Assembly: GCF_056746865.1 (NCBI RefSeq) | Contig: NZ_CM163382.1 | Length of the DNA: 64,000 nucleotides | Direction: 5' to 3' (one strand) | Shown here: piece after piece, positions 47,952 through 55,058 of the stretch | Numbering within the stretch: position 1 is the stretch's first letter | How the letters are laid out: each line of letters opens with the position of its first letter | Translations under genes and position numbers: made by a program | The notes under the pieces: model-generated | What the model was told of the DNA's origin: nothing | What the model saw: the letters and a program-made list of their open reading frames with translations, nothing else | Database searches by the model: none

Positions 47952-49329
47952 GTATTCATAATGGATTAGGTTCAGCAGTTGCTGAAGTGCTTGTAGAAAC
48001 TTGTCCTGTGCCCATGCGTCGGGTGGGGGTTAAAGAGCGGTATGGCCAGGTTGAAACTCAGGACTTTTTACAGAGAGAGTACGGGTTAACCGCGCAAGCT
48101 ATTGTGGCGGCAGCCAGAGAGCTATTGTAATTCATGGAGTTTGTTTACCATTCTGTTTTTCTTAAAAGTGAGTGTCTGTGCGGTCACTAAACTCGGTAAT
48201 AAAGCAGTTCATTGCAGGATAAGAAGCGTTTGGTTGTGTCGTTTTACCGTAAGAACCGACCGCCGTATGTATCCATTAAGCCAGTATTGGTAACGTAGGT
48301 GCCCACCTTTTCAAACTGGTGGGCGCCTGTTATGGAGCAAAAACATTATCCGCAGAACCCCGCAGATCATTTTCAAATGAGTTAAACTTCAAATGGTTAA
48401 ACTGGCTTTGCAACCAGGAGCCTCTGTTGCCCGTATTGCCCGGGAACACGATATCAATGATAACCTCCTGTTCAAATGGCTCAGACTCTGGCAGAACGTA
48501 AGGTAAAGGGAGATGAAAAAGGCAATAGCAGAACTGAGTGACAGTGAAACCATTCTGGCGTACAGGGTTGGATGGTGAAACTGATAAAAAAACCCTCTGA
48601 AAATTCTGTCAGAGGGTGTAGTCAAAAATGGTAGATATTTACGATGCAGTAATGCTTTCACTCCGGTAATTAATTTCCGTGATTAACTGCTTTCGATCAA
48701 TAAAGGAATTGCAAAAGTGTGATCTTGTTCACGACATCGTGGATGATAATATGCCTGATGTCTGAATCCGGAAACAGTGCTCTGGCGGGTTTCATGTGAA
48801 GTTGACGGATAAAAAATCCGCACGACCAGACAGACGTGCGGTTTACGAAATTCGTAACAAGAGGCTTTTCTACGGATCACGTGGTGCGTGCCACGTGAAA
48901 TTTTTGTAGCGCAAAATGTGCAATGTGTAAATACAAGGAAGGAAAAAAGTTAAATTGGTAGAAGTCCATGCCTGCCACATGTACGTCTGCATTCCTCGTT
49001 TTGAACAGAATTCTCACCAGACATCGTGAATTTCTCATTCAATCATCAGAGATATTAACCAGGATTTTTATTGTTTTGTGATATCAGCAGTGCAGGTATA
49101 CAGACGTTAAAGTAATCAGGTTTATTATAACCACCTTTACAAAGTTGTATATGTTTATAATTTAATGATTTTAATGCCAGTCGTTTTCTGCTGCTTAAAT
49201 TGAGGTCGCATATTATACACAATAATATTCTTAGCATTATTAAATTAATAAGAGAGGATTCTTATCACTGTATTTTTGCTCCGCACTACCGTTCTGGCTG
49301 GTGAAGTAATAATACAGGAGAATAACAGA

Positions 49330-50871
49330 ATGCTTAAAAGACGTGATGCTTTTTTAAAGAAAAGCGCGCTGGCAGTGAGTGTGGCCCTGCTGCTCTCGGC
49401 TCAGGCTCAGGCTGTTTTGACAGGGCCTGTTGATGGTAATTCTTCCAGCTTACTGATTGGAGAAAACTCTTTTATTACGAATTTAACTGGTACAGTTAAT
49501 AACACTTTCCTTTTGGGAGGTGGCGCTTTTAACCTGGATTCACCAGGAAGTCTTCAGTTTGGCTCTTTTTCGGAAGTGTATAATTCTCCACACAGTGTCA
49601 CCCTGGGAAGGGATGCCGGTCAGGCTGAGTCAAAATATGGTGTTGCCATAGGTAAGAGCGCTGAGGTATTTAATTCACAGCATAGTGTTGCTATTGGGGG
49701 ATGGGCTGGAATAGAAAATTCTTCAGGCTCTGTAGCTCTGGGCCATGGCTCACAGGTGTCGGGAGAAAATAACGTGGTATCTGTTGGTGCCGGGCCTGAG
49801 GGATATGGAAAGAGTGTCAAAGGAGCACCGGAAACCCGCCGGATTATAAATGTGTCTGATGGTATCAATAACACAGATGCAGCGACGGTAGGGCAACTGA
49901 ATGAACGATTTGATGATGCACAGGTCTTTTTGTTGCAGACGAATGAAAGAATTGACGAGACAGATAAACGTCTTTCAACAGTTCATGCTGAACTCAGCAG
50001 GGATATTATTGCAGGCACATCGGCAGCGGTGACGTATACAGATGTAACAGCGCTTGCACTTCAGGATGAGATAAAGGATGGGACGAACAAAGTACGTGAT
50101 GAGTTGAAATCACAGGGAGACAGTCTGCGTGGTGAGATAGGCGGTGTATACAGAGATGCCCGTGCTCATACTGACAGTCAGGTCACAGCAGTACGTGATG
50201 AACTGAAGGCAGAGGGAGACAGTCTGCGCGGTGAGATAGGCGGTGTATACAGAGATGCCCGTGCTCATACTGACAGTCAGGTCACAGCAGTACGTGATGA
50301 ACTCAGCAGGGATATTATTGCAGGCACATCGGCAGCGGTGGCGTATACGGATGCATCTTCTCTTGCTCTTCAGGATGAAATAAAAGAAAAAGCGGATGAA
50401 ACAGTTCAGGTTTCCCGGGCTTATACAGATAAAAGTGTACGGGATGCCCGTAAAGAAGCGAAAAGCCAGGCAGAACATCTCAGCGATGTGCTTGTGAAGA
50501 ACAGGGCGCAGACGGATGCAGCAATAGCCTCAAATACAGCAGCGATAAGGAATAACAGTCATCGTCTGGATTTGACGGAAGCCTGGCAGAAGATGGCGAC
50601 AGAGAGAATGAATAATATGCAGGAGCAGATTAAAGAGAACCGGAAGGAGTTAAGGGAGAGTGCAGCCCAGAGCGCGGCACTGGCCGGTCTTTTCCAGCCA
50701 TACAGTGTTGGAAAATTTAACGCGACAGCAGCCGTTGGTGGTTACCGTGATGAGCAGGCCATTGCGGTGGGCGTGGGCTACCGTTTCACAGAGAATGTGG
50801 CAGGAAAAGTTGCAGTTGCTGCAGGTGGGTCATCCGCATCGTGGAATGCTGGTGTGAATTTTGAGTTCTGA
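49330..50871 (+). CDS. Trimeric autotransporter adhesin (YadA-like C-terminal anchor) with repeat-containing coiled-coil stalk
   Basis: ORF 49276..50871 trimmed to [28 protein letters not shown] (signal peptide); YadA-type head repeats (SVAIG/ VSVGAG), coiled-coil stalk, C-terminal beta-barrel anchor ending …AGVNFEF. Confidence 0.8.
50115..50312 (+). repeat. Tandem 99-bp (33-aa) direct duplication inside the adhesin stalk
   Basis: Units beginning gggagacagtctgcg at 50115 and 50214, encoding [30 protein letters not shown] twice; flanked by a second, more distant repeat pair ([12 protein letters not shown]…LALQDEIK). Confidence 0.8.
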
Positions 50872-50909
50872 CAGGTCAGGATTTAGATATCTGTCCCGGG
50901 GGGAGTCCC

Positions 50910-52248
50910 CATAAGCGCTAACTTAAGGGTTGTGGTATTACGCCTGATATGATTTAACGTGCCGATGAATTACTCTCACGATAACTGGTCAGCAATTCTG
51001 GCCCATATTGGTAAGCCCGAAGAACTGGATACTTCGGCACGTAATGCCGGGGCTCTAACCCGCCGCCGCGAAATTCGTGATGCTGCAACTCTGCTACGTC
51101 TGGGGCTGGCTTACGGCCCCGGGGGGATGTCATTACGTGAAGTCACTGCATGGGCTCAGCTCCATGACGTTGCAACATTATCTGACGTGGCTCTCCTGAA
51201 GCGGCTGCGGAATGCCGCCGACTGGTTTGGCATACTTGCCGCACAAACACTTGCTGTACGCGCCGCAGTTACGGGTTGTACAAGCGGAAAGAGATTGCGT
51301 CTTGTCGATGGAACAGCAATCAGTGCGCCCGGGGGCGGCAGCGCTGAATGGCGACTACATATGGGATATGATCCTCATACCTGTCAGTTCACTGATTTTG
51401 AGCTAACCGACAGCAGAGACGCTGAACGGCTGGACCGATTTGCGCAAACGGCAGACGAGATACGCATTGCTGACCGGGGATTCGGTTCGCGTCCCGAATG
51501 TATCCGCTCACTTGCTTTTGGAGAAGCTGATTATATCGTCCGGGTTCACTGGCGAGGATTGCGCTGGTTAACTGCAGAAGGAATGCGCTTTGACATGATG
51601 GGTTTTCTGCGCGGGCTGGATTGCGGTAAGAACGGTGAAACCACTGTAATGATAGGCAATTCAGGTAATAAAAAAGCCGGAGCTCCTTTTCCGGCACGTC
51701 TCATTGCCGTATCACTTCCTCCCGAAAAAGCATTAATCAGTAAAACCCGACTGCTCAGCGAGAATCGTCGAAAAGGACGAGTAGTTCAGGCGGAAACGCT
51801 GGAAGCAGCGGGCCATGTGCTATTGCTAACATCATTACCGGAAGATGAATATTCAGCAGAGCAAGTGGCTGATTGTTACCGTCTGCGATGGCAAATTGAA
51901 CTGGCTTTTAAGCGGCTCAAAAGTTTGCTGCACCTGGATGCTTTGCGTGCAAAGGAACCTGAACTCGCGAAAGCGTGGATATTTGCTAATCTACTCGCCG
52001 CATTTTTAATTGACGACATAATCCAGCCATCGCTGGATTTCCCCCCCAGAAGTGCCGGATCCGAAAAGAAGAACTAACTCGTTGTGGAGAATAACAAAAA
52101 TGGTCATCTGGAGCTTACAGGTGGCCATTCGTGGGACAGTATCCCTGACAGCCTACAAAACGCAATTGAAGAACGCGAGGCATCGTCTTAACGAGGCACC
52201 GAGGCGTCGCATTCTTCAGATGGTTCAACCCTTAAGTTAGCGCTTATG
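50910..52248 (+). mobile_element. IS186 (IS4 family), apparently intact, with ~10-bp target site duplication
   Basis: Termini CATAAGCGCTAACTTAAGGG (50910-) and inverted copy ending 52248; flanking direct repeat ggggagtccc at 50900-50909 and 52249-52258 within a GC-rich palindrome. Confidence 0.9.
50959..52077 (+). CDS. IS186 transposase
   Basis: 372-aa ORF MPMNYSHDNWSAILAHIGKPEELDTSARNAG… matching recalled IS186 transposase. Confidence 0.9.
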   Translation: MPMNYSHDNWSAILAHIGKPEELDTSARNAGALTRRREIRDAATLLRLGLAYGPGGMSLREVTAWAQLHDVATLSDVALLKRLRNAADWFGILAAQTLAVRAAVTGCTSGKRLRLVDGTAISAPGGGSAEWRLHMGYDPHTCQFTDFELTDSRDAERLDRFAQTADEIRIADRGFGSRPECIRSLAFGEADYIVRVHWRGLRWLTAEGMRFDMMGFLRGLDCGKNGETTVMIGNSGNKKAGAPFPARLIAVSLPPEKALISKTRLLSENRRKGRVVQAETLEAAGHVLLLTSLPEDEYSAEQVADCYRLRWQIELAFKRLKSLLHLDALRAKEPELAKAWIFANLLAAFLIDDIIQPSLDFPPRSAGSEKKN

Positions 52249-52281
52249 GGGGAGTCCCCCGGGATATAATGAGGTACAGAG

Positions 52282-52737
52282 ATGCTGGATATAATCCTGG
52301 CGACGAGAGATATTTATTTTGAAAAAGCCCTGCGAGAGGTATTTGGAACCGTAAGCAGTCGAATCAGATATATAGAAGATGCCATATCAGACAGAAGAAG
52401 GGTGCAGTCAGGCAGGTCATTCAGATATTATTTTGTATTCTGTGATGATGAGTATACAGATATTGTTCGTATTCTTTTTACCGGAGAGGCCTGCTGTATT
52501 CTGAATAAGTCGATGCTGAATCTGAGAGCGGCCGGAGGTGTGTTGACGCTGGAAGAGCGCAGAGCGGTACTGAACCGGTATTACAGAGGTTTAAGTATTG
52601 CGGAGATTACAGAAGAGACGGGGCAGAATGACAAGACGGTATACGGTCATCTTCGTCGTGCACTGCAGCGGTCTGGATTCCGGAAGGGGCGTTTTATAAA
52701 GGGGAGAGAAGCGGCGGGGGATTCAGGTGTTGAATAA
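52282..52737 (+). CDS. Putative transcriptional regulator with C-terminal LuxR/sigma-70 region-4-like HTH
   Basis: 151-aa ORF; C-terminal LTLEERRAVLNRYYRGLSIAEITEETGQNDKTVYGHLRRALQR; GAGG-like RBS (gaggtacagagATG). Confidence 0.6.
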   Translation: MLDIILATRDIYFEKALREVFGTVSSRIRYIEDAISDRRRVQSGRSFRYYFVFCDDEYTDIVRILFTGEACCILNKSMLNLRAAGGVLTLEERRAVLNRYYRGLSIAEITEETGQNDKTVYGHLRRALQRSGFRKGRFIKGREAAGDSGVE

Positions 52738-53053
52738 TGTATCTTATATTGTGATATCGGTGCTGCTGCTGTTATTTTTTGTTGTATTTGTGACGAATGG
52801 TTAAGAATAAAACATGAGTTGGTGATTATCAGGACAGGTTGCTTGTATATGAAGATAACAAAGGCGGCATTTATTTTTGCGCTGTCAGTGTGGAGTGTTG
52901 CTGTGATATGTCTTTTATTATTTGTACTGGTTGTTCTGGGATAGCCATAGTGAAATAAAAAGCTGTCTGAATTAAATTATTTTGAACACATATTTTAATT
53001 CTGCACTAAATTCAGAATGACCCTGTAAATAATTCTGTGTAACTGCCGCCGTA

Positions 53054-54261
53054 TTAAAGGTGCTCGCTAAGGCGGTCACCGAACTCGATAATAAAACGGC
53101 TCATTGCCAGCCGCCAGTTCTGGATTGGCATACTCCATTTTTTGACGCCGACTGTATCGCCAGATAAATCACTTTTCGCACCGAGTCGTCCGTTGGGAAC
53201 ACCTTGCGCTTCTTTATCGCCTGCCGAATGACACTGTTCAGCGATTCGATGGCATTCGTCGTGTAGATGGCCTTGCGGATATCCGGTGGGTAACCGAAGA
53301 AGGTGTTGAGATTTTCCCAGTGTGTGCGCCAGCTCTTGCTGATTTGCGGGTATTTTTCATCCCAGACGCCTGCAAACTTATCCAACGCCATCAACGCCGT
53401 TTCCTCTGTCGGGGCCTGATATACCGCTTTCAGCCCGCTGGTGACGGCTTTGTAATCCTTCCACGACACGAATTTCAGGCTGTTGCGCACCATATGGATG
53501 ATGCAGAGCTGAATATGCGTCTGCGGGTACACGCTATTTATCGCTTCCGGGAAGCCTTTCAGGCCGTCCACGAAGGCGATAAGGATATCGTTCAGGCCGC
53601 GATTTTTCAGTTCCGTCAGTACATTCAGCCAGAACTTTGCACCTTCATTTTCGGCCAGCCACATATCCAGCAGCTCTTTCTGACCGTCGGTATTGATGCC
53701 CAGCGCGAGGAACACCGCTTTGTTAATGACACTCCCGCTGTGACGAACCTTAACCACAATACAGTCAAGATAAACAATGGGATACAGTGCATCCAACGGT
53801 CGGTTTTGCCATTCAGAGACCTGTTCTTTAACCGCATCGGTCACTTTGGATATCAGCGTGGGCGAGACATCGGCGTCGTACATTTCTTTGAAGGCTGAGG
53901 TAATTTCGCGGGTAGTCATCCCTCTGGCATACAGCGCCAGGATCTGGTTGTCCATGCCGGTAATGCGGGTCTGATTTTTCTTCACCAGTTGTGGTTCGAA
54001 GGTATTTTCACGGTCACGCGGCGTGTTAAGTTCGATCTCGCCATCATCGCACAATACCGTTTTTGACGAGTAGCCATTACGGGTATTAGAGCCTGATTTA
54101 GGAGCATTTTTCTCATGACCTAGATGGTCAGTCAGTTCTGCATTGAGCGCCGTTTCGACGGTAAGCTTTGTCAACATGCGTGAAAACTGGTTGAGGTCGG
54201 CTTCGGTTTTAAGGCCTTTGGCCAGTTCAGCCGCAAGGACTTTAAGTTTCTTTTCGTCCAT
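53054..54261 (-). pseudogene. IS256-family transposase, frameshifted near C-terminus
   Basis: ORF 53101..54261 matches IS256/mutator-type transposase; conserved C-terminal tail KKWSMPIQNWRLAMSRFIIEFGDRL is in another frame after a T/A homopolymer near 53117-53127. Confidence 0.8.
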
Positions 54262-54429
54262 CGTTTGCCTGTCTCCGTTGTTGGAGTGAACATATCAAAA
54301 ACAGGCAATTACACAATTTTAATTACAGTCTCTTCAGAATGGGTAATCAGTGACCGTCCTGACGGTCACTTTAAAGAAAATGCATATTACACAGAATGGT
54401 AAACAGGCTCAACATAGAGCTTGAAGGTA

Positions 54430-55058
54430 GTTGTTGCCTTGTAATAAAATGTGTGATTCATAGACATCGTTTCAATTTTCTCAGTTCAAGTTCAGGCTTG
54501 TAATTCTGTTCCTGTATATGCTCTTCATTGGGCTGATAGTTTGCATGAACGGCATCGGAGTATGGTGTTTTCTCAGCAAGTTCAAAGTAGCGTTCCATCG
54601 GAGTTTTACCGTTGTGAGCGCTATGAGGACGTTCCCTGTTATAGTAATGCTACCATTCTGCTAGCAATCCCTTCAGGTCATCAGCAGAAAGATCTACGGT
54701 AGCGTAAAACTCAGCTTTGTCTGTCTTTTGGGAACGTCCAACCTTTATTACATCAGGCGACAACTACCTTGAAAAACGCCGTTACTCACCGATCCCCTTC
54801 ACGGTAATACGCACTATTGCCAGTGAGATTGAATGAAGTCGTTTTAACTCGCTTTGAATACGTCTTGCACCCAGATTTCGCTGAGAACGTAACTTCCAGA
54901 ATCAGAGCGACTTCGCAAGTGCTGGTTTTCGTTGATGGTGAACGCTTGGAGCGACGGCTGTAGCTTTCCAGACCAGCGATGCCCTGAGCCAGATATCTGC
55001 GCCACCATTTACACAATGTGGGCCGAGAAGTGCCACAGTGACGGCATACAAATGTCAA
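54430..55058 (-). pseudogene. IS481/IS3-superfamily transposase remnant (N-terminal HTH fragment and C-terminal integrase-core fragment)
   Basis: 54786..55058 encodes …RPTLCKWWRRYLAQGIAGLESYSRRSKRSP… (HTH); 54430..54660 encodes …YYNRERPHSAHNGKTPMERY… (DDE core tail); internal deletion and in-frame stop. Confidence 0.5.

Follow-up and report, generated by a model that had tools for sequence, protein, structure and literature searches.

The 64,000 nucleotides of DNA analysed here (the window) carry a small regulator gene behind the gene for a trimeric autotransporter adhesin, with an insertion sequence now lying between the two (Table 1). The first-pass annotation had placed a 151 aa protein at 52282–52737, and the ORF has exactly this extent; it is on the + strand, starts with ATG and has a good ribosome-binding site. 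Read directly from the sequence, a GAGG is found at 52271–52274, 7 nt 5' of the ATG, and a longer reading frame is ruled out by an in-frame TGA at 52270–52272, 12 nt 5' of the same codon. The ORF is real and intact. The identical protein is present in RefSeq as a 'sigma factor-like helix-turn-helix DNA-binding protein', and the RefSeq names for the regulator also include 'sigma-70 family RNA polymerase sigma factor'. It is annotated yet uncharacterised, and its name is misleading. Alleles with a frameshift, a truncation or a fusion are found in the databases (P0002–P0016), while none of the RefSeq entries inspected is flagged as a pseudogene. Comparison with the regulator of strain DE17 shows two coding differences, both non-synonymous and none synonymous.

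Table 1. Features of the adhesin–regulator locus, with positions counted from the first nucleotide of the window.
Feature	Position	Strand	Basis or comment
Trimeric autotransporter adhesin gene, Eib-type anchor group	49330–50871	+	Pfam YadA_anchor, E = 3.7e-16
Left part of native spacer, with left stem arm	50872–50909	+	Comparison with strain XDL
IS186/IS421-type element	50910–52248	+	DDE_Tnp_1 and IS4-family matches; 23 bp terminal inverted repeats
Right part of spacer, with right stem arm	52249–52281	+	Sequence read; compared with strain XDL
Regulator gene, assigned to the TosE family	52282–52737	+	151 aa, WP_000884155.1
Two small, strongly hydrophobic ORFs	52727–52804 (25 aa), 52849–52944 (31 aa)	+	Both kept in strain DE17
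IS256-family remnant	53020–54332	-	Frameshifted transposase (RefSeq); homology with DE17 interrupted

The adhesin, called 'YadA-like family protein' in RefSeq, is 513 aa long from the RefSeq start, and the longest ORF begins at a TTG at 49276. A 99 nt tandem repeat is present within the gene at 50091–50303 in 2.2 copies, the copy number varying among genomes. The last 100 aa share 57–64% identity with the anchors of other adhesins that are linked to related regulators. The adhesin is a mosaic: conservation is ~94% in the upstream region and signal peptide and 99% in the anchor, whereas the head varies between strains. The region upstream of the gene (48001–49407) travels with the adhesin–regulator pair and has 93.7% identity in DE17.

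On the other side of the regulator, the sequence from 52738 to 53019 is AT-rich (33% GC) and forms the native 3' tail of the module, lying within the conserved block. The 25 aa hydrophobic ORF overlaps the regulator stop codon, and the frameshift allele P0002 (220 aa) joins both of the small hydrophobic ORFs to the regulator. An Rfam scan of 48000–54500 gave no match. Homology to the DE17 sequence breaks off at 53019 and is restored at 54333, where the flanks overlap by 9 bp. The IS256-family remnant in this gap does not belong to the module, which in this strain ends on the right at the remnant. In DE17 a lysozyme-inhibitor gene comes next, ~100 bp beyond the junction, in place of the aerobactin genes, which identifies the adhesin–regulator pair, rather than a neighbourhood of regulator and aerobactin genes, as the conserved unit.

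In the intact strains XDL and DE17, the adhesin stop codon and the regulator ATG are 61 bp apart and there is no insertion sequence. This bears out the view, taken from the window alone, that the regulator was immediately downstream of the trimeric autotransporter gene before IS186 intervened. The native spacer contains cccGGGGGGAGTCCCCCggg, which folds into a stem of 11 bp (-23.6 kcal/mol). The IS186 transposase ORF (50959–52077) runs in the same direction as the regulator, and insertion of the element has generated a 10 bp target duplication, GGGGAGTCCC, at 50900–50909 and 52249–52258. The target motif of IS186 is GGGG(N6)CCCC (Lee et al., PMC5009759), and the spacer stem-loop is a perfect copy of this motif, the native site being represented in the window by 50895–50909 and 52249–52263. 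Strain 98232 carries IS186 at the same spacer site in the opposite orientation, and the site has therefore been hit independently. The stem-loop is a natural IS186 hot spot at which the adhesin and the regulator become uncoupled. In the right part of the spacer, 3' of the stem-loop, there is a TATAAT at 52265–52270, which may be part of a private promoter of the regulator. Crude scans of the + strand from 48500 to 53200 gave no promoter-like site.

Of 5426 complete E. coli genomes, 183 carry the regulator, in every case on the chromosome and with at least 99% identity. A 241 nt query spanning the 3' end of the adhesin gene, the spacer and the 5' end of the regulator gene matches 183 genomes, the same number. 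In 164 of these carriers nothing interrupts the junction, and in the remaining 19 the best match is broken at the hairpin; pairs split by IS186 account for ~10% of carriers. The regulator is strictly linked to the Eib-type adhesin gene, which bears out the co-occurrence check proposed at first pass, and the pair is kept in the different context of DE17. A further ~186 complete genomes retain no more of the adhesin region than its first 738 nt (window 49100–49837), annotated as a 'hypothetical protein' or a 'Tat pathway signal sequence protein'. In one of these, XH993 (locus L006, 6001–6738), a sul2 resistance region replaces the rest of the adhesin gene and the regulator; the regulator is absent there because the adhesin has been lost too.

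The C-terminal half of the protein contains a helix-turn-helix (HTH) of the LuxR/sigma-70 region 4 type, as had been recognised from the sequence. Pfam Sigma70_r4_2 (PF08281) matches residues 87–130 with E = 2.2e-7 and 30.9 bits, against a gathering cut-off of 25.7, and there are weaker matches to other Pfam HTH families over the same residues. In NCBIfam there are sub-threshold ECF-sigma and UhpA matches only, confined to residues ~67–130, those to sigma models scoring 12–21 bits against cut-offs of 43–350. The N-terminal 89 residues have no Pfam family match, and Pfam identifies neither Sigma70_r2 (region 2) nor Response_reg (PF00072) in the protein. Among solved structures, the best match of the family profile described below is GerE (1fse, E = 4.6e-5), followed by the DNA-binding domains of VraR, DevR and EvgA and by ECF sigma region 4.

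The AlphaFold model made with the family alignment has a mean pLDDT of 79.4 and is confident in both domains; when made without the alignment the mean is 37.5 and the model is unusable. In the model, residues 1–76 form a shortened receiver-like alpha/beta domain (strand 2–7, helix 11–27, strand 28–30, helix 31–41, strand 49–54, helix 56–65, strand 70–75), residues ~88–130 form a GerE/LuxR (sigma-4-like) HTH with helices at 90–101, 106–113 and 117–130, and residues 136–151 form a disordered tail. The structure most similar to the model is RcsB and the second is NarL. What had been described as a degenerate N-terminal domain is homologous to the N-domain of the family and is predicted to be CheY-like, with four strands and three helices but without the acidic pocket and the final third of a receiver. 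The receiver ends after b4 in the model, leaving no a4-b5-a5 and no conserved Lys. Asp55, which is invariant in the family, lies at the end of b3 in the phospho-acceptor position of receivers. Of the acidic pocket, Thr/Ser and Lys of a receiver, it alone is conserved in the family, the acidic pair after b1 not being so. With the last third of the receiver and the acidic pocket missing, phosphorylation is very unlikely, and the regulator would act independently of it. By its model, the regulator appears to be built like a member of the NarL/FixJ class whose receiver stops after the fourth strand. As in this class and its atypical relatives (RcsB, NarL, GerE; GadE, DctR and EcpR/MatA of E. coli), a receiver-type domain comes first and a GerE-type HTH second, whereas the response regulators of the class have a complete receiver with acidic pocket, Thr/Ser and Lys. 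There is no kinase gene near the regulator. In PHROGs, phrog_6585 weakly matches the N-domain (E = 4e-4).

The RefSeq names suggest an alternative sigma factor or a sigma-like protein, and the Sigma70_r4_2 match above its gathering threshold and the weak ECF-sigma matches in NCBIfam agree with these names. A sigma factor is nonetheless effectively excluded, since region 2 is missing, the NCBIfam sigma scores are far under their cut-offs, the N-domain is alpha/beta and receiver-like in the model rather than helical as in sigma-2, and the family profile fits GerE best.

Relatives of the regulator are not readily found with the single sequence. A word-indexed search retrieved only copies or fragments of the same protein and HTH-only noise, and an exhaustive phmmer search of 1.84 billion representatives retrieved only fragments of the regulator itself and HTH-only matches with E ~3e-4. 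With tblastn there was no match in plasmids and nothing significant in phages; one weak, full-length phage match (H160, E = 3) proved to be an unrelated ORF on a plasmid-like contig. The relatives were reached through the adhesin anchor, which has a weak DNA match in strain NCTC9113. There, a 158 aa 'LuxR family' protein aligns with the regulator over its entire length (23% identity, pairwise E = 3e-6). Profile searching then identified 78 family members of ~150–175 aa, nearly all from E. coli and most named 'hypothetical protein'. The regulator is the outlier of the 34-sequence family alignment, with 18–24% identity to the others, yet in this alignment it keeps the family-invariant residues D55, G68, L88, K118-T119-V120 and L124. 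It is without a segment of ~15 residues that its relatives have between the two domains, and its a2-b3 loop is longer. To avoid circularity, a leave-query-out profile was made from which the regulator and its near-identical cluster representative P0001 were removed. Searched against the 816 six-frame ORFs of the window, this profile has the regulator as its sole match (E = 3.3e-11), the N-domain contributing 21.1 bits and the HTH 17.1 bits.

The characterised protein to which this family leads is the LuxR-family protein TosE of the uropathogenic strain CFT073 (WP_001024300.1, 160 aa), encoded by the first gene after tosA. The 34-sequence alignment matches TosE in hhalign with a probability of 99.9% (E = 1.5e-31, 155 columns), and BLASTP aligns residues 2–132 of the regulator itself with TosE at 22% identity (E = 9e-9). 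TosF has only the HTH in common with the regulator and with the family alignment. There is no model for a TosE family in Pfam or NCBIfam, and it is defined here by the 34-sequence alignment together with TosE. These comparisons place the regulator in the TosE family as a very divergent member. Kinship with GadE and DctR, suggested by an 'ITRD' N-terminus, has no statistical support: hhalign gave 5.6% (GadE) and 4.2% (DctR), and BLASTP gave no alignment. The N-terminal motif IILATRD of the regulator does resemble LIITRD of DctR, in an alignment that is in register and not significant.

Five related adhesins each have a related regulator behind them, which extends the co-occurrence seen in the window type to its relatives. 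P0055 and P0049 belong to lambdoid prophages, at whose ends they are encoded between the tail-fibre genes and dinI, 86 and 82 bp, respectively, after a YadA-anchor gene. P0057 is 82 bp behind a YadA-anchor gene on plasmid-like contigs, P0058 is 88 bp behind such a gene, and P0021, from NCTC9113, follows a related adhesin after a 68 aa ORF. These five proteins, mostly annotated as 'hypothetical protein', have 39–66% identity to one another and 24–31% to the regulator. The adhesins that precede family members have one type of anchor (57–90% identity over the last 100 residues) and end in (F/W)EF, this being NFEF in most and NWEF in the partner of P0021. The pair in the window has both the most divergent anchor and the most divergent regulator, and the two divergences rise together. 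This pattern of sequence divergence fits co-descent. Taken jointly, membership of the TosE family and linkage to the adhesin are held with high confidence.

An adjacent Eib-type adhesin is absent in 5 of the 11 family subtypes examined. P0070 and P0073 are found directly behind TosR-like genes of the PapB family (E ~1e-16 against TosR), P0065 and P0064 are near PerC-like genes, and P0066 is near type VI secretion and capsule genes. The P0070 and P0073 loci (L019, 4327–4848; L027, 3540–3887) are also near PerC-like and classical autotransporter genes, and in them TosR-like and TosE-like genes travel together without tosA. In NCTC9113 (L009, 4008–9227) the order is an Eib-type adhesin gene, the 68 aa ORF, the TosE-like gene, IS66 and a TosF homologue (41% identity to TosF, E = 3e-35). 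This mirrors the tosA-tosE-tosF arrangement, a trimeric autotransporter taking the place of the RTX adhesin.

In every adhesin–regulator spacer examined (loci L012, L015, L024, L033, L009 and L035), tosA-tosE included, a stem-loop directly follows the adhesin stop codon. Four of these stem-loops, among them that of tosA-tosE, are followed by 5 or 6 T and resemble intrinsic terminators; in two others the T run is shorter or interrupted. The window-type stem-loop is without any T run and is followed by the TATAAT. The differences in the T runs suggest, at the level of sequence, a graded read-through into the regulator.

Three secondary sources (PMC5956150, PMC7545054, PMC10392849) connect TosE and TosF, two products of the tosRCBDAEF operon, with the suppression of motility, and for this effect all three cite Engstrom et al. 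2014. The published phenotype is attributed there to TosE and TosF together, and tosA is controlled by a different protein, TosR (PMC5956150, PMC7545054). The regulator resembles TosE in its two-domain plan, its size (151 against 160 aa), its detectable full-length homology and the start of its recognition helix (KTVYGH against KTVYTH in TosE). Both genes are directly behind a gene for a non-fimbrial adhesin, on the same strand and across a stem-loop. The systems differ in that the partner of TosE is a type I-secreted RTX protein and that of the regulator a type Vc trimeric autotransporter, and in that the tosA-tosE stem-loop has a T-tract where that of the regulator has none. TosE also has TosF and TosR as partners at its locus, whereas neither a TosF-like nor a TosR-like gene was found within the window.

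Small DNA-binding proteins that are encoded with adhesins and repress flagellar genes include PapX, MrpJ, PefI-SrgD and MatA/EcpR. PapX is MarR-like and MrpJ is Xre-like, so the likeness of the PapX/MrpJ type of cross-regulator to the regulator is in the proposed logic and not in the protein family. Beside the Enterobacter plasmid adhesin that is 43% identical to that of the window, no such regulator is annotated. The adhesin eYadA of avian pathogenic E. coli (PMC12955052) is at a different locus, between cueR and ybbJ. In strain ExPEC XM (L005, 7883–8899) it is followed by two small ORFs that are unrelated to the regulator. Deletion of eYadA raised motility, with incomplete complementation of virulence (PMC12955052), and polar effects of the deletion on the downstream genes may be involved.

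A combined explanation of these observations, to which we would give an even chance, is that the regulator is a trans-acting factor coupled to the adhesin that represses motility in the manner of TosE and TosF. The cassette would consist of the gene for a non-fimbrial adhesin, a stem-loop and then the regulator as a portable second gene. At intact loci, where no convincing promoter of its own is seen, the regulator would be expressed from transcripts that start at the adhesin promoter and read through the stem-loop, and its level would track transcription of the adhesin, damped by the stem-loop. It would then bind DNA elsewhere and switch another programme. By analogy with TosE and TosF the likeliest candidate is flagellar motility, which would be repressed such that cells displaying the adhesin stop swimming, but motility as the target programme is a tentative assignment, held at somewhat less than even. 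In the strain analysed here, IS186 in the stem-loop puts 1.3 kb between the adhesin promoter and the regulator, and the coupling has probably been lost or replaced by read-out from IS186. The co-transcription, the DNA targets and the effect on motility are what we infer in this explanation; the ORF, its domains and fold class, the homology to TosE, the conserved linkage and the IS186 insertion are what it is built upon. Against a coupled regulator are the absence of TosF and TosR partners, the five subtypes without an adjacent adhesin and the existence of frameshifted and truncated alleles. The regulator is also the most divergent family member and is without the 15-residue linker segment, and the function of TosE may therefore not transfer to it. 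Most family spacers have a canonical T-tract terminator, which would limit read-through and may point to separate promoters that a simple scan has missed.

The first-pass annotation had suggested a possible dedicated regulator, of the adhesin or of island genes. As a regulator of the adhesin, such a protein would bind the ~1 kb region upstream of the adhesin gene and activate or repress it in a feedback loop, without major distant targets. The strict linkage of the pair is in keeping with this, as is the upstream region that travels with it (48001–49407), and there is a precedent in AutA and AutR of avian pathogenic E. coli, LuxR/GerE-type proteins that bind the promoter of the adjacent autotransporter adhesin gene upaB (PMC4844996). 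AutA and AutR are, however, HyxR and HyxA, of 264 and 253 aa, and as relatives they were rejected (hhalign 0.9% and 0.3%), the HTH being all that they have in common with the TosE family. In the tos system the adhesin is controlled by TosR and not by TosE or TosF (PMC5956150), and TosE and TosF are reported to act together on motility (PMC5956150, PMC7545054). A primary switch is not usually encoded downstream of its adhesin gene and beyond a stem-loop; a gene so placed has the position of an output of adhesin transcription, not of its control. Some family members, moreover, have no Eib-type adhesin next to them. Dedicated control of the adhesin, the main rival to the coupled model, is doubtful.

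It is also conceivable, if rather improbable, that the regulator is a passenger without a role, dead or decaying in function, left over in an island ridden with insertion sequences and in this strain cut off from any promoter. IS186 is upstream and the IS256-family remnant downstream, no promoter-like site is seen on the + strand in 48500–53200, alleles P0002–P0016 are frameshifted, truncated or fused, and both of the coding differences from DE17 are non-synonymous. These points have to be set against the 164 of 183 genomes in which the junction is intact, the RefSeq entries inspected, which are not flagged as pseudogenes, and the invariant residues, which are kept despite ~78% divergence from the relatives in a protein that is modelled with confidence in both domains. 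The co-directed transposase gene of IS186 could, moreover, supply transcription. A trans-acting regulator coupled to the adhesin is the reading that we prefer to both of these.

A broader version of this coupling, which is speculative and on balance unlikely, would make the TosE-like proteins an E. coli-specific 'adhesin output' cassette. This would have been attached repeatedly to unrelated types of adhesin, namely the type I RTX protein TosA and the Eib-type type Vc adhesins on prophages, plasmids and islands, and would report adhesin transcription through a leaky stem-loop to bring about flagellar repression. The shortened receiver domain may in this case pair with RcsB. Pairing with RcsB is a property of RcsA, BglJ, GadE and MatA.

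TosE-type regulators linked to adhesin genes were already known, and that of the window is a new and unusually divergent one. The modest new point is the occurrence of TosE homologues as a cassette behind Eib-type autotransporters, of which there is no description in the literature searched and no public model. The finding opens no new class of mechanism. Bringing genes named 'sigma factor-like' or 'hypothetical' into one TosE family does give these small companions of virulence adhesins a testable function. TosE-family genes are found beside such adhesins in E. coli strains that are avian, uropathogenic or Shiga-toxin-producing. If the regulators tie adhesin expression to motility, studies based on adhesin deletion are at risk of polar effects on the regulator, and the IS186-split strains (~10% of carriers) are natural uncoupling mutants. 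If the 'adhesin output' reading is true, adhesins borne on prophages would reprogramme the motility of their host on lysogeny.
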